A DNA stretch of 64,000 bases from the NCBI GenBank assembly GCA_029262635.1, contig JAJCZA010000005.1:535135-599134 (forward strand). Direction: 5' to 3'. The notes beneath the pieces were generated by a model. The model saw only the letters and a list, made by a program, of their open reading frames with translations. It did no database searches and had not been told where the DNA came from. Positions 7,599 through 51,476 of this stretch are shown in pieces. The position numbers were made by a program, and so were the translations under genes. Position 1 is the first letter of the stretch; each line of letters starts with the position of its first letter. Origin of the DNA: Vampirovibrionales bacterium (GTDB taxonomy: Bacteria > Cyanobacteriota > Vampirovibrionia > Vampirovibrionales > Vampirovibrionaceae).

Positions 7599-8401
7599 GA
7601 CGAGGTTTCCTCCAGTTCGGTCTTGCTACCTTCGTAAATATAGAAACCTTCGCCGGTTTTAACACCAAGCTTGCCGGAGCCAGCCATCTGCTTGAGTAGA
7701 AGCACCGGACGGTAACGGTCTTCAAAATATTCGTTGACTAATGTGTCGAGAATCTGACAGATAACGTCGATACCGATTTTATCGGCCCATGCCAGTGGAC
7801 CTTCCGGGTAGTTCGTACCCAGCTTCATGGCGGTGTCAATATCTTCAGGGCTCGCCACGCCTTCCATTACGGCAGAAGCCGCCTCATTAACGAGCATAGC
7901 AAGCACTCTAGGGAGAACCAGTCCGGGGGTGTCCGTAATTTCATAAGCCTTGACCTGAAGGGATTGGAACAGATTTTTAGCCTTGGCTAGCGCTTCAGGG
8001 TCGGTGGCCTTGGTGGGCGCGAACTCAATAACGTGACGGCCTTGATAAAAGGCCAGCGGAGAGTACATGATGAGCCGGGAGATTACTTCTCTGTCAAAGA
8101 AGGGAGTATCATAGGTGGTTGCATAGCCTGAGGTGCTAATGCCTGATAAGAGAACAATGGGATGATGCTCTTCAGATAGGGCTTCCAGAAATTCTGGAAG
8201 ACTATGGTAGTCCATCCAGCCGTGATGGCAAATAATAACAAAGTCGGGCAGTTCATGAGCCTCTAGGGGTTCTTCCGGGATACTTTCCACATCGTCAATG
8301 TCATCGTAAATATGAACCTGATGTCCTGCCGTGCGACAGAGACTGAAAAAGGTTTGGGTAATCACATCCTGGGGCTTGCCCAGCAGAAAAATTTTACTCA
8401 T
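7595..8401 (-). CDS. 3-hydroxyacyl-CoA dehydrogenase-like protein with degenerate NAD-binding and catalytic motifs
   Basis: C-terminal 3HCDH dimerisation domain intact (PGLVLPRVLAMLVNEA...), but N-terminal GxGxxG replaced by LLGKPQD and the HFFNP catalytic-His region replaced by MYSPLAF. Confidence 0.65.
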   Translation of the reverse strand: MSKIFLLGKPQDVITQTFFSLCRTAGHQVHIYDDIDDVESIPEEPLEAHELPDFVIICHHGWMDYHSLPEFLEALSEEHHPIVLLSGISTSGYATTYDTPFFDREVISRLIMYSPLAFYQGRHVIEFAPTKATDPEALAKAKNLFQSLQVKAYEITDTPGLVLPRVLAMLVNEAASAVMEGVASPEDIDTAMKLGTNYPEGPLAWADKIGIDVICQILDTLVNEYFEDRYRPVLLLKQMAGSGKLGVKTGEGFYIYEGSKTELEETSS

Positions 8402-8427
8402 GGTAAGGGCTGAACTTTCTCGATGGT

Positions 8428-9324
8428 CTAGGCTTTCTTTGAGTCGTAGGTGTAAAATCCCTGATTGGTTTTTCGTCCCAACAGGCCGGCATCAACCATG
8501 CGACGTTGAATAATATGGGGTTTATAACGAGGTTCGTGGAAATAAGCTTCATAAACAGACTGAGTTACGGCGAAGTTGACGTCCAGTCCGATGAGATCCA
8601 TTAGCTCGAAGGGTCCCATCTTAAAGCCACCAGCTTCTTTTAAGACTTCATCAATGGTCTCATGAGATGTCGCTTGTTCTCCCAGAAGTCGGAGAGCTTC
8701 ACCGTAAAAGGGTCGAGCCACTCGGTTCACAATAAAACCCGGTGTGTCTTTGGCGATAACCGGGGTTTTACCGACGGCCTGAGCGAATACTTTTAAGGTC
8801 TCAATGATACGGGGATCTGTTCGTTCGCCCCGGATAATTTCAACGAGTTTCATCAGAGGCACTGGGTTAAAGAAATGGAGACCTGCTATTCGATCCGGAT
8901 TTTTGGTTGCGCCCGCAATTTCAGTGACGGAGAGCGACGAGGTATTGGAGGATAAAATTGTCCCGTCGGGAGCTAAGGCATCTAGCTCTTGAAAGATCTC
9001 TTTTTTGAGAGCCATGTTTTCCGGCACGGCTTCAATCACCAAATCGCACTGAGCCGTCTCTTTAAGCTTTAGTGTGGTGATCAGGTTTTCGTTGACCCGC
9101 TGAAGGTCATCGTCCGTTAGCTTGCCTCGGGCCTTTCCTTTGGCTAGTGAGGTTTCAATCTGGGTACGGCCCCGTTTGAGGAAGTCTTCCTTAATATCAA
9201 ACAGAACCACCTGAAACCCCTTGAGAGCAGAAATTTGGCCAATCCCTGCTCCCATCGTACCGGCGCCAACAATCCCGACCCGTTTAATGGTTTCAACAGG
9301 AGGGGTATCAGTTTTTTTGCTCAT
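8428..9324 (-). CDS. 3-hydroxyacyl-CoA dehydrogenase (PaaH/Hbd-type)
   Basis: GIVGAGTMGAGI Rossmann motif, HFFNPVPLMKLVEI catalytic region, C-terminal 3HCDH domain. Confidence 0.9.
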   Translation of the reverse strand: MSKKTDTPPVETIKRVGIVGAGTMGAGIGQISALKGFQVVLFDIKEDFLKRGRTQIETSLAKGKARGKLTDDDLQRVNENLITTLKLKETAQCDLVIEAVPENMALKKEIFQELDALAPDGTILSSNTSSLSVTEIAGATKNPDRIAGLHFFNPVPLMKLVEIIRGERTDPRIIETLKVFAQAVGKTPVIAKDTPGFIVNRVARPFYGEALRLLGEQATSHETIDEVLKEAGGFKMGPFELMDLIGLDVNFAVTQSVYEAYFHEPRYKPHIIQRRMVDAGLLGRKTNQGFYTYDSKKA

Positions 9325-19493: not shown

Positions 19494-19634
19494 CTATTTG
19501 AGTGCCTAATCGATCATTAAAAAATGACAAATCAAACACAGACAAAAATGGTTTGTTTTGATAATCAGAAGAAGAATTTTAACGGATACAGATCCGTGTG
19601 CAGATAGAGATTGAGAGAGTTTAAGGGAAATACT

Positions 19635-21956
19635 ATGATTAATCCCCTTTTTAACAACTACCAAACAGCGAGATCCTTCCAGATGAATCCGGGAGTGTAT
19701 CAGCTTCCGACCCAGGCCCAGCCGCTCGCTTTTCAGCAGCCTCAGTTTCAAGGCCAACAGGCTGTGGGGCAACAAGCTTTAGGGCAGCCTCAAGGGGCTC
19801 AAATGATGAACATGATGCTCCAAATGATGAGCATGTTGCTTCAAGTGCTTCAACAACAATTTAATCCGGGAGGCCAAAAACCTTTAGGCCAACAGCCAAA
19901 TGCTGCTGCAGGCAATGCGGGTAATGCAGGTAATGCAGGTAATAGTGGCGCTCTTGGTGGAGCTCCTGCTGCTGCCGGTAATGCAGGTAACGCGGGCAAT
20001 AGTGGTGGTATTTATGGCACCCCTGCCGCTGCAGGCAATGCGGGTAATGCAGGTAACGCAGGTAATAGTGGTGCTCTTGGTGGAGCTCCTGCCGCTGCCG
20101 GTAATGCAGGTAACGCGGGCAATAGTGGTGGTATTTATGGCACCACTGCCGCTGCAGGCAATGCGGGTAACGCAGATAATGGTGGAGCTCCTGTTGATGC
20201 AGGTAACGCAGGTAATGGTGCTGGTGTTTATGATGCTCCCGGTGGTGCTTACGGTGCTCCCGGCGGAGCCCCTCCTGCAGGTGATGCAGGCAATGGTGTT
20301 GGTAATGACGGTACGCAACCTTATCTACAGACCGACGCCGAAGATGCCGTGGATTATATCTTAGCTCAGACCCAAGGTGGTACCAGTGGCGTAAACGAAG
20401 CCATTGAAGGTCGCTTTGCCCGGGACGGTTCCCGATTTGCAACGGCAGGTGCTAATGAGTTTGATGCGGCGATCGTGTCGAATTATGCGGCCCAATTTAA
20501 AGCGTTTGCTCTTGGAAAGGATCCTAAATTCGATCCGGGTGTTGATGATGTTAGAACCATTGCCAATAACATTACCGAAGCGCAACAAGTTCAATTTACA
20601 CCGGAAGCGGAACTCTTATCCAAGGTGGCTGCGGTTTACCGGGGCGAGATGACCGGTAGCGTAAACGAGTATGACAACAATGCCCTGAGAAATGTTCTAC
20701 TTCAGTTTAACCGGGGTGACATTGCCAATACAGACGGTGTCGGCCAGTTTGACGTTCAGTCAATTGGTGGTGTGGTCAAAATGCTCAATGAAGAGCAAGA
20801 CCCGGCGCTTCGTCAGCAAATGCTTCAGCAGGTTTTTGACTTCCAGGGGAACTCTCCCTCCAGTCCAAGTGGAGCGGTTCCTCAGCTCGGTGCTTATCAG
20901 CGAGCCGTTGATGTGGTTCGAAACGGTACCATTGATGGCTTATTGAATAACTATGCCAATGGTGTTCAGACCACCCAGCCTCTTTACAATGGCCCGGCAA
21001 ATCCAAATGGCGAGCCTGTTTCAGGGGCAGTTAACCGGAATATTGATTTTCAGGCCCTGAGTACGCAAGATCGAACTGCTCTTGGACTCAATGACCGTGA
21101 TCGAGCTGTTCTCCATCTATATGGTCGTCAAATGATTTCTCAAGGGTTTCAGGATGGCGGTATCTACACTAATATTCTGGATAACAACACGGGTACCGCT
21201 GCGGAACAACAATTAGTTGCGGAACTTCGGGCAAGAGATCAAGCCCAGTTTGGTGTGGATACTGGTGTTGCGTTGGATGAAGAGTTTTTTGCTCTCCATC
21301 AACGACTCACGGGTGAAGATTTATCGACCCGATATGCCAACCGGCAGGTCAATGCTTCACAAGGTGCCATTAATATTGTTAACGATCTGGATCAGCTCCA
21401 GCAAAAGACAGGTTTATCCACGTTTGAGCAGTCTATCTTAAGACTCTATGGCCACGAACCCTTAATGAACGGCGGAAAAATTGATGGCTCCAGTCTCGCT
21501 TATACCATTGCCAACAGTAATGCATTAGATAGTGACGCAAAATCGGGTGGAAATGGTATTGATACTCAAGCTCAGACGTTACTGGAGCTTGATCTTGCTC
21601 GGGATGGTGTTGTCAACGGCGATGCGTTAAGCATTGGTTTTACTGGCGCATTAGATAAGCTTTATCTGGGTACAGAGGGTGTGACCGAACAAGGTCTGCA
21701 GCAAACCGTTATGAATCAAGCCGCTCAACTTGGCCGGACCACTCAACAAATTGGTCAAGATGTGTCTCGGGGTGTCGATGCTGCCATTGGTCAAGCAACT
21801 CAACTCGTTAAGGATCACCCAGTCACTTCCGTTGCCGCTGCAGGTGGACTAGCCGCCGCTACAGCTGTATGCCCTTACCTTGGTGGGTTAGGCGCATCGG
21901 GTGTCGCCGCAACATTTGGTGGCCCTCAGGCCGGAGGTAATGGTATTCCAGTCTAA
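19635..21956 (+). CDS. large low-complexity protein: Q-rich N-terminus, (GNA)n tandem repeats, about 580-aa C-terminal region of unknown function; no signal peptide
   Basis: ATG 19635 with SD AAGGGA 6 nt upstream (ORF track start 19611 is TTG); long ORF; antisense His/Tyr-rich ORFs are artefacts. Confidence 0.7.
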   Translation: MINPLFNNYQTARSFQMNPGVYQLPTQAQPLAFQQPQFQGQQAVGQQALGQPQGAQMMNMMLQMMSMLLQVLQQQFNPGGQKPLGQQPNAAAGNAGNAGNAGNSGALGGAPAAAGNAGNAGNSGGIYGTPAAAGNAGNAGNAGNSGALGGAPAAAGNAGNAGNSGGIYGTTAAAGNAGNADNGGAPVDAGNAGNGAGVYDAPGGAYGAPGGAPPAGDAGNGVGNDGTQPYLQTDAEDAVDYILAQTQGGTSGVNEAIEGRFARDGSRFATAGANEFDAAIVSNYAAQFKAFALGKDPKFDPGVDDVRTIANNITEAQQVQFTPEAELLSKVAAVYRGEMTGSVNEYDNNALRNVLLQFNRGDIANTDGVGQFDVQSIGGVVKMLNEEQDPALRQQMLQQVFDFQGNSPSSPSGAVPQLGAYQRAVDVVRNGTIDGLLNNYANGVQTTQPLYNGPANPNGEPVSGAVNRNIDFQALSTQDRTALGLNDRDRAVLHLYGRQMISQGFQDGGIYTNILDNNTGTAAEQQLVAELRARDQAQFGVDTGVALDEEFFALHQRLTGEDLSTRYANRQVNASQGAINIVNDLDQLQQKTGLSTFEQSILRLYGHEPLMNGGKIDGSSLAYTIANSNALDSDAKSGGNGIDTQAQTLLELDLARDGVVNGDALSIGFTGALDKLYLGTEGVTEQGLQQTVMNQAAQLGRTTQQIGQDVSRGVDAAIGQATQLVKDHPVTSVAAAGGLAAATAVCPYLGGLGASGVAATFGGPQAGGNGIPV
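19902..20186 (+). repeat. in-frame tandem repeat, 123-bp unit (41 aa AAAGNAGNAGNAGNSGALGGAPAAAGNAGNAGNSGGIYGTP) x2.3, near-identical copies
   Basis: units 19902-20024, 20025-20147, partial 20148-about 20186; only a few synonymous/one T-to-P differences. Confidence 0.85.
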
Positions 21957-42414: not shown

Positions 42415-43143
42415 TTATTGATTTTTCTTGCTTCTCAATTCTTCTAATAGTCGTTCAGACAAATCAAGAATAGTATTCCAGTCGGCTAATATTTGTGCGT
42501 GAAATTGAATCATGGGTGGATCGGTTTCAGAGTCAGCTACAATAAAGGGCTTAAAATTTTCTGACTGAGTTTGGTTAATGTTGCTTTTAAAGTCTGCCCT
42601 TTCATTGGTTCTCTTCTTATAATCTTCCGCCTTCTTTGGGGTTAAACAAAAGGGTGGAATATAAGGAGGCATTCTATGTGCGAGAGAGTGGCGGAATTGC
42701 TCTAAATTTTCTTTCCACTTTGTAAGCCGCTCAGAATTTAGATACTCTCTGAATTCCTCAGATAACTTCCTTTGAATTTTTTTATTAAATAGACTTACCT
42801 CATGCTTTCTTTTAGACTCAAATTGGGTTTCTGTAACCCATATCCAAGCAAGGTTATCAATGCAGCCATAAGTATTGAAAGAAAATGCTTGCAGGTTAAT
42901 AGTAATATCAGTGAGAGTCTTATCAGACGGTCCTTCTGCTTGATTTAGAGGGCAAAGCATATAAGTATTTTGAATACACCTTTTTAAAGTAGACATTCTA
43001 CGAAGTAACCCGTTATATACGTAATTGGGGTATTCCTGAGTGTCGAAAAAAAGAGTATATTTAGATACTAGGTCTTGATGGGTTTCTTCTACAGAGTTGT
43101 AGCCTGTTGTAAGCTTCTTGATGTTTTCTTGAGAATAAAACAT
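42415..43143 (-). CDS. hypothetical protein with HEPN-like RxxxxAH motif (Abi_2/AbiD-like candidate); AT-rich single-gene insertion
   Basis: about 33% GC; FRHSLAHR resembles the Rx4-6H HEPN motif; otherwise no match. Confidence 0.4.
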   Translation of the reverse strand: MFYSQENIKKLTTGYNSVEETHQDLVSKYTLFFDTQEYPNYVYNGLLRRMSTLKRCIQNTYMLCPLNQAEGPSDKTLTDITINLQAFSFNTYGCIDNLAWIWVTETQFESKRKHEVSLFNKKIQRKLSEEFREYLNSERLTKWKENLEQFRHSLAHRMPPYIPPFCLTPKKAEDYKKRTNERADFKSNINQTQSENFKPFIVADSETDPPMIQFHAQILADWNTILDLSERLLEELRSKKNQ

Positions 43144-43248: not shown

Positions 43249-43908
43249 TTACTTTAGTGATTCGGGGTCATCGGTGGCGAAGGCGTCAATGGTTACATTC
43301 ACGGTTTCAGATAATTTGACGAACAGGGCTTCCGGTCGGGGAATGCCGTGTTCGGTCAGAGTGACGGGAAACGTTCCTCGAATACGAATCATATTACCGG
43401 ATTTGAATCGTTTATGGGTGGTGAGCGACTCTTCAAAATAAGTAACCTTCATAGAAGCCGATTTCGGCACGCTCACACCATGAATGGTAAAGGGGCCGGT
43501 GGCGTTGATGGTGACCACATCACCGGTTTTAAACGGAGCTTTGGCCTTGGTTTTAATGCGAGTGGCCTTAAATGTCGCTTTTGGGAATTTTGCGGTATGT
43601 AAAAAGTTATCCCGCATGTGCTGGTTTCGCAGTGGGATACCCGTATCAATGCTGGCTAAATCCACATTAAAGGTTACTTCAAACGGGTGCTTTTTATCAA
43701 ACGTGAATGAATCATCGTAGCAAACTTTGCCTTTGATTTTATTGGTGACCCCTTCAATTAGTTCTACCGGAGCATCGGACGAGAAGCGGACCACATCCCG
43801 GTTTGAATGGTCGTCAATATAAAAACATTTGGCTTCGGCACCTGAGGGCAAAAAGCTAACCATCCCTAAAAGAGCGGCGAGTACGACTAAAAATTTAATT
43901 TGTTTCAT
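43249..43908 (-). CDS. YceI-like periplasmic protein (signal peptide)
   Basis: Sec signal MKQIKFLVVLAALLGMVSFLPSGAEA; YceI-like beta-barrel pattern; SD AAGGA 25 bp after the upstream gene. Confidence 0.7.
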   Translation of the reverse strand: MKQIKFLVVLAALLGMVSFLPSGAEAKCFYIDDHSNRDVVRFSSDAPVELIEGVTNKIKGKVCYDDSFTFDKKHPFEVTFNVDLASIDTGIPLRNQHMRDNFLHTAKFPKATFKATRIKTKAKAPFKTGDVVTINATGPFTIHGVSVPKSASMKVTYFEESLTTHKRFKSGNMIRIRGTFPVTLTEHGIPRPEALFVKLSETVNVTIDAFATDDPESLK

Positions 43909-43933: not shown

Positions 43934-44830
43934 CTAAATGACTGTTACGGAGCCGGATAAAACTCCCAAAGAATAGCACTGGTTAAGAAGTTTAAGCCCT
44001 TCTTCAAATAGCTTTTCTTTAGGAATCGCTTCCAATTCTGGCATGGTTTTTTGTAGCGTTTCCAAGGTTTTCAAATAAGATGATGATTTTTCTGACGTCG
44101 ACATAAACGCTGAGGTCAGCGGATTTAATCGGAAAAACCGAGCCTTTAATGTTTCGGGATCCCGATAAATTAAGATATCACTGGGCGCCGGTTTTACCTT
44201 TGAAAAAATAGTGAGTTGCTCATCCTCTGTCATATCCATTTGCCTTAAAATTTCGGGCACCGGATAGATAAATGACTTTAAGTGCCGAGCTGAATTCCAG
44301 ACGGGTTTCCACTGGCCTAACTCATTAGCAGAGTCAGGAACACCTGGCTCGAATGACTGAGGGAAGACGATGTCAGGCGCATTCTGAACGGTTACTTCAA
44401 TGCCTTCGTACCATGCTAAGTCAGCAAGAAAAGGAAATTTATCTCCTACTTCATTCAAGTTATGACGACAAGTAACAGCAGGGTTAGACGCCATGGTTTC
44501 TAAAAACTCAGGGAAAGCTTCCATGGAGCGATAAAGCTGAAATGAGGTATTGGGATAGATTCGCCGGTAAACTTCGGCCAGATGAACCCATTGAGCATTG
44601 CTAAAAAATCGAGCCGTGTAGGGGAAGATATTGTTCATTGTCGAAAAAATACCGCCTCGCAGTAGTTCTTCGTACAAATACAAGCCTTCTCTTGGAATAC
44701 CAGCTAAATGCTGCCCTTGAGGCGTTTGAGTAAATGCGGTCCACGAGGCTTCATCATTCAGAACGTTATGGCCGTCCATGGTTAGTAAGGCGGTGCCCAA
44801 TTGTTGTTGAAGTTCTTTAACGCTTGCCAT
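43934..44830 (-). CDS. DUF2063-family protein (MbnC/BufC-like partner of DUF692 enzymes)
   Basis: N-terminal region fits the DUF2063 pattern (..YRRIYPNTSFQLYRSMEAFPEFL..); start overlaps the DUF692 stop (ATGA). Confidence 0.6.
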   Translation of the reverse strand: MASVKELQQQLGTALLTMDGHNVLNDEASWTAFTQTPQGQHLAGIPREGLYLYEELLRGGIFSTMNNIFPYTARFFSNAQWVHLAEVYRRIYPNTSFQLYRSMEAFPEFLETMASNPAVTCRHNLNEVGDKFPFLADLAWYEGIEVTVQNAPDIVFPQSFEPGVPDSANELGQWKPVWNSARHLKSFIYPVPEILRQMDMTEDEQLTIFSKVKPAPSDILIYRDPETLKARFFRLNPLTSAFMSTSEKSSSYLKTLETLQKTMPELEAIPKEKLFEEGLKLLNQCYSLGVLSGSVTVI

Positions 44831-45723
44831 TATCCTGCCAGCTCCTTTCGCTTTCTAGGAGCCGTTTTTCTTATGACGCCATAATGCTTTTCCCAAAGGG
44901 CTTTAATTCGTTCAATTTCGGGTCTAAGTTCGCTGAAAGGTGGGATATTAAGATCTCGCTCCAGCATCACTCCGCTGGGCTGACATTGTTTTAAGACATA
45001 ATCCAGCAGCTCCCACACCGCCTCTTTAACCGGTGCACCATGGGTATCCACCAAGCCTTCGGGATACTCTGTGTGGCCAGCCATATGAATTTGAACCACT
45101 CGCTCTAAAGGCAACGCATCAAAATAGGCTTTGACATCCCAATGGTGATTCGTGGCGTTCACAAACACATTGTTTACATCCAGCAACAGGCCGCAGTCAG
45201 CTTGTTCTAAAATACTAGCCAGATAGACTTCATCGCTCATCTCATTGTCGGGGTAATTCACATAAAATGAAGGGTTTTCAATCAAGACCGGAATTTGAAA
45301 GGTGTCTTGTAAGTATTTGATTCGCTCGGCCACATGGTTTACCGATGCTTGATGACGAGGCATGGGGATCAAATCGTTAAAATACAAACTGTTAATCCCG
45401 CTAAAGGTCAGGTGGTCGCTAAACCAAGCTGGTTTAACGATGTCGAAAAGTTCTTTAAGCTGTTGAATATAAAGGGGATCCCACGGGTCGGTACTGCCGA
45501 TAGAAAGGCTCACGCCGTGAGAGACAAGAGGGTAGACTGCCATGGCTTTTTCCAGACGTTGACGAGCCAATCCGCCTTTACCCATATAATTTTCAGGGGT
45601 GATTTCCACCCAGTCTAAAATATCGGTGGCTTCCAGTGTCTCCTGCAGGAGGGAATCACGAAGACCCAAGCCGACACCAAGTATCGGCGTTCCTTGGAAC
45701 CCGGCTTGATGTCTCTGTGTCAT
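44830..45723 (-). CDS. DUF692-family (MbnB/BufB-like, xylose-isomerase-like TIM barrel) peptide-modifying enzyme candidate
   Basis: UPF0276 signatures incl. IENPSFY; start placed at second ATG 45723 with SD GGAGG 8 nt upstream (ORF track 45738). Confidence 0.75.
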   Translation of the reverse strand: MTQRHQAGFQGTPILGVGLGLRDSLLQETLEATDILDWVEITPENYMGKGGLARQRLEKAMAVYPLVSHGVSLSIGSTDPWDPLYIQQLKELFDIVKPAWFSDHLTFSGINSLYFNDLIPMPRHQASVNHVAERIKYLQDTFQIPVLIENPSFYVNYPDNEMSDEVYLASILEQADCGLLLDVNNVFVNATNHHWDVKAYFDALPLERVVQIHMAGHTEYPEGLVDTHGAPVKEAVWELLDYVLKQCQPSGVMLERDLNIPPFSELRPEIERIKALWEKHYGVIRKTAPRKRKELAG

Positions 45724-45801
45724 TTGATTCGCCTCCATTGCAGAAAACTCTGGATTATTTGTTTGTTATTAGTTTAGAGTTAAAAGCTATTAGTTACTTA
45801 C

Positions 45802-45837
45802 GAAAAAAGCCTAATAATTAACACCAGCTGTGCTGGT
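45802..45837 (-). terminator. weak hairpin (possible attenuator) between the precursor gene and the modification genes
   Basis: stem accagc/gctggt overlapping the precursor stop codon, U-tract 14 nt downstream on the transcript. Confidence 0.25.
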
Positions 45838-46124
45838 TATTTGTCGGAACCGCAGGTGCCGGCACCGCATTTATCTCCGCCGCCTTTATCGCCGTGGTCT
45901 TTATCTTTACCGCATTTATCAGAACCGCATTTATGCTCGCCTTTGTCTTTGCCACATTTATCGGAACCACATTTGTCGCCTTCAGCGATGAGGGTGCCGT
46001 TTCCGGTAAATTCGGTCATACCAAAAAGGCCATCGTTAGCTTGAGCTTGTTGATCAACAGCCGCAACACTAGCAACAACACCAAGGGCAAGGGCAACAGC
46101 CGATAATTTATTTTTATAGTTCAT
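45837..46124 (-). CDS. secreted 6-Cys low-complexity peptide (RiPP/bufferin-like precursor candidate)
   Basis: Sec signal with AQA cleavage site; mature part GDKCGSDKCGKDKGEHKCGSDKCGKDKDHGDKGGGDKCGAGTCGSDK with all six Cys in x-C-G context; SD AAGGAG upstream. Confidence 0.7.
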   Translation of the reverse strand: MNYKNKLSAVALALGVVASVAAVDQQAQANDGLFGMTEFTGNGTLIAEGDKCGSDKCGKDKGEHKCGSDKCGKDKDHGDKGGGDKCGAGTCGSDK

Positions 46125-46145
46125 TGAGGTTAAACTCCTTACTTA

Positions 46146-46159
46146 TTAATTCGAATTAA
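46146..46159. promoter_or_regulatory. perfect 14-bp palindrome TTAATTCGAATTAA just upstream of the precursor gene's RBS (candidate operator)
   Basis: self-complementary; partly duplicated (ATTAATTCG x2); a second 16-bp A/T palindrome TCTTTTTTAAAAAAGA lies at 46192-46207. Confidence 0.35.
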
Positions 46160-46339
46160 TTCGTTTTTTACCAATTATCCAGTTTAAATATCTTTTTTAA
46201 AAAAGAAGATACTCTAGTGTAGACGATACACCCCTCAAATGTTCCAAAGTTCACTCAGGGAGTTGATTACCGTTCAGTAACCAATAGAAACCCACCGGCT
46301 TTTCAGCTTTACATTTCCTGACATATAACCAAGTTACCT

Positions 46340-49538: not shown

Positions 49539-51476
49539 TTAGGAAACTGACGAATGATCCAACGTCGTTAAAGCTGAACTGCTCGCATCCATCAGACGTT
49601 TACCCACGTCGTCAAAGGTGATATTCAGGGTCACTCGGTCTTCACCCGGAATCACTTTTGCGACGACGCCTTCGCCATATTTCTCGTGAGAGACTCGATC
49701 GCCGGCTTGATAGCCTGCTTTTTCTATCAAATCCTGACTTTCTGGGTCCATGGTTGATAAAATTGGGATCGGCTCGGAAGCCCTGTTTTGGAGCTTAGGG
49801 GTTGTCGCAACGCTGGCATCCACATGGGTATCGTCGCTACCGATGGCTGTGCTAGAGGTCACTTCCGAATCAAAGTCAAAATCGAACTCATCGTCCATAT
49901 CGGATACCGTTGACGTTTGGTCGTCAAGAGACGACGGGAAGAGTTCATCCAGTGCCGCTTCCTGATCGGCGTCCAGTACCGGAGGTGTGTCATCAGTCGG
50001 TTCAAGTGGAGGGGCTATATCGGGATGGCGATCAGGAAGCGGTTCGTCCAGCCGGGTATCAAAATCAAAATCCAGATCGTCATCTTCTTCTATGTCCGCT
50101 TTTGCTTCTGCTTCCACCTCTTCTGGCAACGAGTCGGTTGATGCTTCTGTTAATAAAGATTCTGCCGATTGTAAGGTTAGATTAGACGCTTCTAAAACAA
50201 GAGTCTCCGCTTTTTGTTCGGTGTTAGCAGTTGTAGTCTCTGGAAACGGTGTAAAGCACTCCTCGGCCTCGTCAGTATCTCCATCTATTAGCGAAGCTGA
50301 TTCCGCTTCCAGCTGCTCTATTTCATCCAGTTCATCTCCATCAAGCCCTTTGAGAGTGGCTTTCATTGGCAAGCCCAGGGTCATTTCGCCGCAAAGGTGT
50401 ACATGAACCTCATCACCGCCCAATTCGTATTCCGCTTCAAAATAGTGAGCAACAGCGTCTGTATAAGTTGCTTCCGACTGACGAGACGATAACACGAGCA
50501 CGTTGTATTCTGCTTCATCCCACTTTTGAATGTAGTGGGGTAAGTTATCCAAATAATTTTCGGGATAAACCAAGACCGGAATCAGGCCGTGTTCTTTATG
50601 ACGGATCAACTCATGGCACACATAATCGTAAAAAACGCCTCGCCATGGGTTTTCAATACCTGATAAGTCCAGCACATTCATTTGATCGGATACCGTGGCG
50701 TCCATGGCAAAAACCTTTTCTGGACTGGTAGCAAAGACTTGTTGTGCATGCATGGTATGGAGCACGTGAATCAGGGCACCTTTGGCGGGACACTCATCGT
50801 AAAGTTGGGTGTTGAGAAAATACTTGAAAGGGATAAAATCCAGTGTTAAGGGCAATGCGCGGGATAAAAGTGCCAGTCCCTCGTCTTGGAACGCTTCAGG
50901 CAGGGCTTCACCCACTTTAGATAAAAACGTGGCAACCCCAATGCCTTGTAAAGAAAGTTGGACTTCTTGTCCGGCCGTCATGACATGATAACCTTCCGCA
51001 AAGGCAAACAATCCTAAGGGATCCATGACCAATAACCGTTGATCCACCTGAAGCCCGTCCATGATTTCTACCAGGGCCTGGTGTTTGGCTTCTAGTGAAT
51101 CACCACTAACGACACTTAATGTTCCGAGTCTTTTTAGGTCGCCCATAAAGGAGCCCCCAAGAAACAAAGGTGAGCGTACATGCCCTAACAGTGTTTGGAG
51201 TTCACCCCCCAATTCTGTGGCATTTAAAAGGGTTGCCTGAGAAAACCCCATGCCCGGTTCCCCGAAAAGAACCGTCATTGAAGCCAGGCACTCAGCGTTT
51301 GTCGTTAAGTGGTCTACCGAGCTCAACGTTTGTAGAGAGGTCACTTCGGTATAGACGGGGGCATCGCCCTCCAGTCTTAATAATTGTCCCACAACCAGTG
51401 GTGTTGAGGCATCAATAAACGCTTCGATCTCGGAGGAGGTAACACGTTTTGGACGAATGGAAAGGGGCACAGCCAC
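49539..51476 (-). CDS. hypothetical protein: N-terminal degenerate P-loop-like domain, long acidic DFDFD-containing linker, C-terminal UvrD/PcrA-type Tudor-like domain
   Basis: GEPGMGFS in place of a Walker A GxxGxGKT; C-terminus GDRVSHEKYGEGVVAKVIPGEDRVTLNITFDDVGKRLM parallels the UvrD C-terminal domain. Confidence 0.5.
   Translation of the reverse strand: MAVPLSIRPKRVTSSEIEAFIDASTPLVVGQLLRLEGDAPVYTEVTSLQTLSSVDHLTTNAECLASMTVLFGEPGMGFSQATLLNATELGGELQTLLGHVRSPLFLGGSFMGDLKRLGTLSVVSGDSLEAKHQALVEIMDGLQVDQRLLVMDPLGLFAFAEGYHVMTAGQEVQLSLQGIGVATFLSKVGEALPEAFQDEGLALLSRALPLTLDFIPFKYFLNTQLYDECPAKGALIHVLHTMHAQQVFATSPEKVFAMDATVSDQMNVLDLSGIENPWRGVFYDYVCHELIRHKEHGLIPVLVYPENYLDNLPHYIQKWDEAEYNVLVLSSRQSEATYTDAVAHYFEAEYELGGDEVHVHLCGEMTLGLPMKATLKGLDGDELDEIEQLEAESASLIDGDTDEAEECFTPFPETTTANTEQKAETLVLEASNLTLQSAESLLTEASTDSLPEEVEAEAKADIEEDDDLDFDFDTRLDEPLPDRHPDIAPPLEPTDDTPPVLDADQEAALDELFPSSLDDQTSTVSDMDDEFDFDFDSEVTSSTAIGSDDTHVDASVATTPKLQNRASEPIPILSTMDPESQDLIEKAGYQAGDRVSHEKYGEGVVAKVIPGEDRVTLNITFDDVGKRLMDASSSALTTLDHSSVS

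Follow-up and report, generated by a model that had tools for sequence, protein, structure and literature searches.

HvfA (NTHI1441) of Haemophilus influenzae, a peptide of 95 residues that begins with a Sec signal of 24 residues and contains six cysteines in three AEGKCGEGKCG repeats, is the precursor of oxazolin, a Cu(I)-binding ribosomally synthesised and post-translationally modified peptide (RiPP); the enzyme pair HvfBC modifies all six cysteines with a loss of 4 Da each (PMC11252979). The product was originally assigned as oxazolone/thioamide (PMC11252979), an assignment that has since been replaced by 5-thiooxazole, both by its own authors and by an independent group (bioRxiv 10.64898/2026.06.05.730506; PMC12668002). 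Fontiphorin and gonophorin have been characterised as 5-thiooxazole as well and the class has been named captophorins (PMC12668002). In HvfA, FonA and NgoA homologous enzyme pairs turn the cysteine of each xxKCG site into a heterocycle (PMC11252979; PMC12668002). The Buf_EGKCG/oxazolin family comprises some 2,000 proteins that are 31-506 residues long and vary in their number of repeats; it is found mostly in Pseudomonadota, and most of its clusters, though not all, include DoxX (PMC12452194; PMC11626156). In the present study we analysed 64,000 nucleotides of a Vampirovibrionales bacterium (GenBank assembly GCA_029262635.1, contig JAJCZA010000005.1, positions 535,135 to 599,134), hereafter called the window, and in particular a small gene at 45837..46124 on its minus strand that lies directly upstream of the genes of an MNIO (DUF692) and a DUF2063 protein. 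We assign a probability of roughly 80% to the assumption that this gene encodes the HvfA-like precursor (A gene) of a RiPP metallophore of the oxazolin/captophorin type. This joint model of family and chemistry is carried by the gene structure, the conservation of the operon, the family homology of three proteins, the conserved Cys-Gly dipeptides and the predicted fold of the partner protein. Our confidence in any physiological role is lower than in this model.

The operon is read on the minus strand in the order precursor, MNIO, DUF2063 partner and YceI:

45837..46124, minus strand: precursor peptide gene, 95 residues plus stop codon, putative divergent member of the HvfA/oxazolin family
44830..45738, minus strand: MNIO (DUF692) peptide maturase of the BufB/HvfB subgroup, according to PF05114 and NCBIfam scores
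43934..44830, minus strand: DUF2063/HvfC-type partner (PME type 1), according to PF09836, the HvfC model and the predicted fold
43249..43908, minus strand: secreted YceI-family lipocalin-like protein, fourth gene of the operon (PF04264, 77 bits)

The peptide translated from the first gene, MNYKNKLSAVALALGVVASVAAVDQQAQANDGLFGMTEFTGNGTLIAEGDKCGSDKCGKDKGEHKCGSDKCGKDKDHGDKGGGDKCGAGTCGSDK, has 95 residues. A ribosome-binding site (AAGGAG) is located 10 nt 5' of its ATG, and gene and peptide can be divided into the following parts:

46135..46140, minus strand: ribosome-binding site AAGGAG, read from the sequence and kept in the related loci L002 and L003
46038..46124, minus strand: Sec-type signal peptide, residues 1-29, a heuristic call from the hydropathy profile
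45975..46037, minus strand: leader-like segment, residues 30-50, NDGLFGMTEFTGNGTLIAEGD, candidate docking site of the partner protein
45840..45974, minus strand: core, residues 51-95, KCGSDKCGKDKGEHKCGSDKCGKDKDHGDKGGGDKCGAGTCGSDK, with six xxxCG sites in three CGxxxCG pairs
45941..45974, minus strand: repeat copy 1 (KCGSDKCGKDK), AAATGTGGTTCCGATAAATGTGGCAAAGACAAAG, read from 45974 to 45941
45899..45932, minus strand: repeat copy 2 (KCGSDKCGKDK), AAATGCGGTTCTGATAAATGCGGTAAAGATAAAG, 29/34 identical to copy 1

The N-terminus consists of an n-region (MNYKNK), an h-region of 17 residues (LSAVALALGVVASVAAV) and a c-region (DQQAQA), with a predicted cleavage between AQA and the following N. The end of this region (QQAQA or QQANA) is kept across the relatives, and neither a lipobox Cys nor a twin-Arg is present in it. 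The precursor is predicted, by rule of thumb, to carry a Sec signal peptide in place of a classical RiPP leader. This is in agreement with the export signal that a preliminary description of the locus had suggested; the homologous HvfA is exported by Sec and cleaved (PMC11252979). The leader-like segment that follows is probably where the partner protein docks. Its invariant residues in five sequences are G32, L33, F34, E38, L45, A47, E48, G49 and D50, and among short relatives this segment is of an LFxMxEV type in 41 and of an NPF type in 101.

The core is hydrophilic and rich in Lys, Asp and Gly. Its cysteines are located at positions 52, 57, 66, 71, 86 and 91 (spacings 5, 9, 5, 15 and 5, the same as in the 95%-identical relative P0001) and stand, in this order, in the sites GDKCG, SDKCG, EHKCG, SDKCG, GDKCG and AGTCG, none of which is EGKCG. 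Lys directly precedes five of the six cysteines and Gly follows all six; as Gly accounts for 17 of the 66 residues of the mature part, the latter would arise by chance with a probability of about 0.26^6 = 3e-4. Repeated Lys-Cys-Gly pentamers in pairs of the KCGxxKCG type are present, with a 5-residue spacing in three pairs. We could confirm the earlier statements that two copies of KCGSDKCGKDK, a GDKCG and a GTCG are part of the translated peptide and that each Cys is followed by Gly. The preliminary description had noted that this pattern would fit enzymes that build heterocycles on Cys with a small following residue, a proposal that is supported by homology to the HvfA, FonA and NgoA systems and by the substrate rules of FonBC: a substrate must offer this enzyme pair two repeats or more, with no residue other than Gly or Ala behind each Cys; Lys can be exchanged for Ala, Arg or Thr, positions 1 and 2 allow most substitutions, and DGKCG is modified fully (PMC12668002). 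All six sites of the window peptide fit these rules.

The comparison with HvfA is the closest one. Both peptides have 95 residues, a Sec signal that is followed by an N region of about 20 residues, a hydrophilic Gly/Lys-rich core and six cysteines in three paired sites of 5-residue spacing, and in both cases the genes of an MNIO and a DUF2063 partner come next. HvfA, however, is built of AEGKCGEGKCG with a period of about 17 residues, whereas the window peptide has (S/G)DKCG, EHKCG or GTCG with a period of 14; the C38/C43 disulfide pair of HvfA has no counterpart here, DoxX (HvfX) is replaced by YceI, the MNIO of the window scores higher on the BufB than on the HvfB model, and the host belongs to the Vampirovibrionales instead of the Pseudomonadota. 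Fontiphorin (FonA/FonBC) and gonophorin (NgoA/NgoBC), captophorins of the Lys-Cys group, share with the window system the xxKCG pentamers, the MNIO with a PME-1 (DUF2063) partner and, as predicted here, the 5-thiooxazole; they differ in position 2 of the pentamer (Gly there, Asp or His here), in lineage and in the accessory gene. The likeness to the Buf_EGKCG peptides and to the bufferins (Buf1 with DUF2282, Buf2) consists of precursors with Sec signals, DUF2063 partners, MNIOs of the same large sequence cluster, a relation to copper and a variable precursor length and repeat number. In contrast to the bufferins, the window peptide lacks DUF2282, and neither sigma/anti-sigma genes nor a DoxX gene adjoin the operon. 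Methanobactin (MbnA/MbnB/MbnC) resembles the system in so far as an MNIO, by oxidation, turns cysteines of a ribosomally made peptide into a heterocycle that binds copper, but it has a leader peptide that is not a Sec signal, two cysteines without repeats, an oxazolone/thioamide product and MbnC as partner.

The proteins were also scored against curated models. The precursor matches the NCBIfam HvfA model NF050188 with 31.9 bits and E = 1.5e-7 (equivalog cut-off 95) and the model NF050137 (KCGExKCG_twice) with 18.7 bits (domain cut-off 19.5). The sister peptides P0002, P0003 and P0012 pass NF050137 with 21.3-22.4 bits; that the window peptide just fails where its sisters pass places the clade at the edge of the model. 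A Pfam scan of the precursor gave no match, not even to DUF2282, the domain of Buf1. An assignment as 'Cys-every-fifth RiPP CefA' was rejected (some relatives match this model weakly below its cut-off and the window peptide does not match it), as was membership in methanobactin, which would call for an MbnB equivalog and an MbnC: the MNIO reaches 37.2 bits against the MbnB cut-off of 325, and its partner is a DUF2063 protein. On the basis of its sequence, we regard the precursor as a divergent member of a known RiPP family.

The MNIO aligns with PF05114 (MbnB_TglH_ChrH) over profile positions 1-261 of 263 and scores 320 bits, the cut-off being 25. Its NCBIfam scores, 302.9 for BufB (cut-off 310) and 274.9 for HvfB (cut-off 360), clearly point to the BufB/HvfB subgroup and to a position close to BufB, yet not to an equivalog by the NCBI thresholds. 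The nearest entry in the PDB is 3BWW (2e-52), which is 72% identical to HvfB, and the active-site motifs SDHL, EN, LDVNN, HMAGH, VDTHG and LERD are conserved in the alignment of the MNIO with 3BWW. N175, D242 and H244 form part of site 3 of HvfB and each of them is needed for activity; taking an offset of +1 between the numbering of HvfB and 3BWW, we infer that the MNIO retains the equivalents of these residues in the Asn pair of LDVNN and in the Asp and His of VDTHG. The start codon of the partner gene overlaps the MNIO stop codon by 1 nt, which suggests that the two genes are translationally coupled. The partner protein scores 37 bits on PF09836 (cut-off 27.2), 25.5 on PF22106 (just short of the cut-off of 27) and 73.5 on the NCBIfam HvfC model (cut-off 142). 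By sequence, no PDB entry matched the partner protein; its AlphaFold model, computed with 13 homologues (pLDDT 86, pTM 0.79), has 3DEE (NGO1945; E = 3.9e-6, TM 0.72) and TglI (8HI7_A) as its best PDB matches in Foldseek. According to this model, the partner has the two-domain fold of NGO1945-like PME-1 partners with a RiPP recognition element (RRE).

Orthologues of the precursor with 95, 69, 56 and 54% identity are present in the same operon context. A profile that was based on these orthologues found 101 proteins in a word-indexed search and 374 representatives at E <= 1e-3 in an exhaustive search of 1.84 billion representatives; 133 of the latter matches, 24 long proteins among them, were absent from the earlier search. 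The long matches were left out as low-complexity false positives because eight that were inspected had few or no Cys-Gly sites. In the 101 proteins, which contain 3-10 cysteines each (mode 6), Gly follows 601 of 619 cysteines (97%) and Lys precedes 447; in 109 further short matches with 2-12 cysteines each, Gly follows 629 of about 680. The preliminary description had staked its proposal on this dipeptide, and the homologues have conserved it; the figures are partly circular, as the profile itself selects for Cys-Gly, and they agree with the published motif. The relatives are often rich in His (DDHCG, HKCG, HHDEHH), which fits metal binding. Named relatives are P0099, an 'HvfA family' protein of Pseudomonas, and P0007 from 'Vampirovibrio sp.'. 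The sole relative that was found with the MNIO in species-representative genomes is a metagenome-assembled genome of the Vampirovibrionales (69% identity).

Gene contexts of the relatives were taken from exact-protein look-ups. The order precursor-MNIO-partner recurs in the loci L002, L003, L004, L006, L008 and L011, and together with YceI as fourth gene it is present in the window and in L003 (YceI at 8301-8960), L004 (8149-8799), L006 (8303-8971) and L008 (6072-6761), the five complete loci of the clade. The gene ileS lies upstream of the operon in the window, and it is found upstream in five loci. No second precursor paralogue was found within the 64-kb window. L009 (606-929; GCA_029262655.1, the same assembly as L003) holds a stand-alone precursor-like gene for P0008, a protein of 107 residues, without an adjacent MNIO or partner gene. 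P0008 has one extra Cys that is not followed by Gly (MCASHLF), and a gene for an FAD/NAD-binding oxidoreductase adjoins it on the opposite strand. One MNIO-PME1 pair of Vampirovibrio chlorellavorus is contained in the supplementary data table of the captophorin paper (PMC12668002); the clade has thus been caught by genome mining, but it is not described beyond that table entry.

The following model of the pathway takes its chemistry, export, copper binding and stoichiometry from the characterised homologues. The pre-peptide would be made in the cytoplasm, where MNIO and DUF2063 partner presumably pair up and the partner probably docks on the segment GLFGMTEF..LIAEGD. With an iron cofactor and O2, the MNIO pair would then perform a four-electron oxidation of each of the six cysteines. 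The most likely product is a 5-thiooxazole in whose formation the carbonyl of the residue before the Cys takes part, at a loss of 4 Da per Cys. Gly would be needed after each Cys because the enzyme takes only a very small residue at this position. Export by Sec and removal of the 29-residue signal peptide after AQA (Ala29) would leave a hydrophilic product that may remain periplasmic or be released. We assume that Cu(I) is bound through pairs of thiooxazoles, roughly one Cu for each CGxxxCG pair, and that a whole peptide holds about three. The role of the product is probably copper buffering or defence, and the YceI protein may serve as an accessory periplasmic protein.

Several points weigh against the assignment as an HvfA-like precursor. 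The cut-offs of both NCBIfam precursor models are missed (31.9 vs 95 and 18.7 vs 19.5 bits), the canonical EGKCG occurs in none of the six sites and the two N-terminal disulfide cysteines of HvfA are absent. The MNIO remains just under the BufB cut-off and well under that of HvfB, and the operon has no DoxX gene. The signal peptide is called by a rule of thumb, the chemistry would have to be transferred from homologues outside this clade, and for HvfA, too, it is debated whether copper defence or copper acquisition is served.

The last point leads to the strongest of the alternatives, according to which the same molecule is a copper-acquiring chalkophore or has another metal or redox role instead of acting as a buffer or in defence. 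Both acquisition and protection are discussed for oxazolin, the His/Asp-rich cores of relatives could bind Cu(II), Zn or Ni, and the YceI lipocalin in place of DoxX hints at a link to lipids or quinones and oxidative stress (PMC9113575). This is nevertheless the less likely role: bufferins protect against excess copper (PMC11626156), a homologous operon of Caulobacter is induced by metal stress through the extracytoplasmic function (ECF) sigma factor sigma F (PMC3511200), an ECF-type motif is located upstream of the window precursor, and the operon contains no gene for an uptake receptor or transporter. A considerably smaller chance is given to a product of the same family and enzymes that is an oxazolone/thioamide, as in methanobactin, and not a 5-thiooxazole. 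The two structures are isobaric, and besides having been the first assignment for HvfA, oxazolone/thioamide is the name that NF050188 and NF050137 still bear. The reassignment of oxazolin by the original authors and by an independent group speaks against it, as do the scores of the MNIO (303 and 275 bits for BufB and HvfB against 37 for MbnB) and a partner of the DUF2063/PME-1 type instead of MbnC.

That the precursor is an unmodified secreted Cys-rich peptide, which binds metal or forms disulfides and is adjacent to the MNIO gene by coincidence, is very improbable. Unmodified HvfA itself binds 2-3 Cu(I) (PMC11252979), and with P0008 a stand-alone precursor-like gene without adjacent MNIO exists. 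Yet the order precursor-MNIO-partner is found in every complete locus examined, the apparently coupled genes of MNIO and partner follow directly downstream, and the strict Cys-Gly rule matches the substrate rule of the enzyme. The open reading frame at 45837..46124 is short, of low complexity, without Pfam match and unnamed in public sources, and on these grounds it could be taken for a chance frame that is no gene. This explanation is effectively refuted by conservation, namely by orthologues of 54-95% identity in conserved synteny, and a strong ribosome-binding site, the restriction of all five differences between the repeat copies to synonymous positions and the match to the HvfA model (E = 1.5e-7) argue against it, too. 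The oxazolin/captophorin-type precursor remains the preferred assignment.

The two repeat copies are identical as peptides, and their DNA agrees in 29 of 34 positions (85%); all five differences are located at synonymous third-codon positions. The preliminary description had understood the core as a near-perfect duplication at the DNA level. This does not hold, as the 34-nt string that was quoted occurs once (read from 45932 to 45899) and the other copy matches it in 29 of 34 positions only. Independent back-translations of the 11-residue repeat with the codon usage of the window differ in 6.6 positions on average (P = 0.29 for five or fewer), and the longest exact direct repeat within the gene measures 12 nt. 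Since the differences between the copies are near the expectation for random codon choice, their DNA is no more alike than the identity of the peptides imposes, and apart from what the peptide sequence demands nothing in the gene points to a recent duplication. The window precursor is a poor substrate for slippage; the earlier suggestion that its core can expand or contract by this process loses its support because the premise of a near-perfect DNA duplication fails.

Repeat turnover as such, however, is real in this lineage. The expected variation in copy number is visible across the relatives, which have 2-12 cysteines, but not among the four closest ones, all of which have six. As general ideas, a repeat core that can expand and a peptide that is secreted and unstructured match what has been published on the oxazolin family. 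In L002 (3322-3609; peptide 95% identical) the two copies form a perfect DNA repeat of 36/36 positions, and in L003 (6001-6309) a longer unit of 19 residues is repeated with 56/57 nt identical. If codons were chosen independently, copies without any difference would be expected with a probability of about 5e-5. Repeat copies differ in 2-5 of 33 sites if they are compared between genomes. The higher identity within than between genomes indicates that the repeats of the sister lineages have been homogenised by gene conversion or re-duplication, i.e. by concerted evolution, while those of the window have diverged at synonymous positions, with purifying selection acting on the peptide. Diverged repeats in the window and homogenised ones in sister genomes provide a small and clean case of concerted evolution in a RiPP core.

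The region upstream of the precursor gene and its 3' end contain further elements that may be involved in regulation:

46222..46245, minus strand: ECF-sigma-type promoter-like motif GGAAC-N15-CGTC, with its start 121 nt 5' of the ATG of the precursor gene
46174..46201, minus strand: sigma-70-like promoter match TTTAAA-16-GATAAT, weak (9/12 positions)
46145..46160, no strand: perfect palindrome of 16 nt, ATTAATTCGAATTAAT, flanked by the promoter-like sites and the ribosome-binding site
46191-46206, no strand: second perfect 16-nt palindrome TCTTTTTTAAAAAAGA, read from the sequence
45823..45837, minus strand: stem-loop ACCAGC-ACA-GCTGGT, followed by an A/T-rich tract and overlapping the precursor stop codon

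The motif GGAAC-N15-CGTC has its sole match in the 64-kb window at this site, both strands considered, where 1.19 matches are expected anywhere in the window. An upstream alignment with MAFFT was uninformative for the distant loci and a motif-anchored comparison was used. GGAAC-N15(-17)-CGTC lies 118-233 nt before the precursor gene in L002 (3194-3217), L003 (5880-5903), L004 (5815-5838), L005 (5768-5791) and L011 (391-416), and L006 and L008 have the variant GGAAC-N16-AGTC at the equivalent place. The bufferin operon of Caulobacter depends on the ECF factor sigma F and is metal-induced via GTAACC-N16-CGAA (PMC3511200). The motif of the window resembles ECF-sigma promoters, and following this homologous system we infer that it may serve as one. 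Neither an ECF sigma factor nor DoxX was detected among the 33 open reading frames of the window that were scanned with Pfam. Sigma-70-like matches of 9/12 positions are no commoner here than in shuffled sequence. The palindromes are A/T-rich; in L002 the first is identical and the second differs slightly in its T/A run, and in L003 they are partly kept. They are possible operator sites, for which no regulator was identified.

The stem-loop at the stop codon is energetically not unusual (fold z-score only -1.1). We keep it as a feature because of its recurrence in position and not because of its folding energy: a hairpin of unrelated sequence is located at the equivalent place in L002, L003, L005, L006 and L008, and that of L006, which follows the stop codon, is strong, GC-rich and succeeded by a T-run. 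It possibly acts as an attenuator or as a stabiliser of the mRNA between the precursor and the enzyme genes, which would fit a raised ratio of precursor to enzyme. Elements of this kind that raise the level of the precursor over that of the enzymes are familiar from other RiPP operons.

The YceI gene begins 25 nt downstream of the partner gene and takes the fourth position of the operon, at which DoxX is usually found. Among the papers searched, none that contains two or more of the terms YceI, DUF692 and DUF2063 refers to YceI, and we found one mention of it, in the supplementary legend for one bufferin cluster. An open reading frame of 242 residues (42415-43143, minus strand) without Pfam or NCBIfam match is located just downstream of YceI and was not counted in the operon. 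In L003 and L008 YceI is followed by secG on the opposite strand and then by an open reading frame of 232-239 residues without Pfam family on the operon strand.

The remaining genes of the window are housekeeping genes (ClpB-like, PheRS, GcpE, an MqnC-like radical SAM protein, MgsA and others), and an Rfam scan of the window found one tRNA and nothing else. Upstream of ileS, a very acidic protein of 645 residues is encoded (49539-51476, minus strand) whose sole match is a C-terminal PcrA/UvrD tudor domain. In L003 and L004, too, ileS is preceded by a large gene to which Pfam assigns little or nothing, and that of L004 weakly matches the PcrA/UvrD tudor domain. An open reading frame of 781 residues without Pfam family (19611-21956, plus strand) contains a 123-nt tandem repeat at 19901-20179 (2.3 copies, 95% matches) that is built of 9-nt sub-repeats, TGCAGGTAA, encoding Ala/Gly/Asn-rich units.

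The biochemical reading of the preliminary description was largely right and, as regards family, chemistry and variable repeat number, already published, and the locus does not change the understanding of the chemistry of the family. Novelty is modest and concerns the lineage and the motif variant, the presence of YceI, a promoter motif kept across loci and repeats that evolve in concert. Whether these features, i.e. a (D/H)KCG core, a secreted YceI lipocalin for the membrane protein DoxX, a conserved ECF-type promoter and hairpin and gene-converted repeats, set the loci of the Vampirovibrionales type apart as a distinct and undescribed subclass of thiooxazole metallophores is doubtful, and we put this forward only tentatively. 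The curated models narrowly miss the precursor; in public sources the peptide carries no name, and it would receive none from annotation pipelines.

If the present assignment is correct, the copper-binding RiPPs that are represented by oxazolin, the captophorins and the bufferins would extend to non-photosynthetic relatives of the cyanobacteria. Through the steady exchange of DoxX for YceI, the role of the fourth gene becomes accessible to comparison. Should YceI and DoxX be functional alternatives, a lipid- or quinone-linked redox step on the exported peptide would be indicated, and such a step, if true, could clarify the role of DoxX across the bufferin/oxazolin superfamily.

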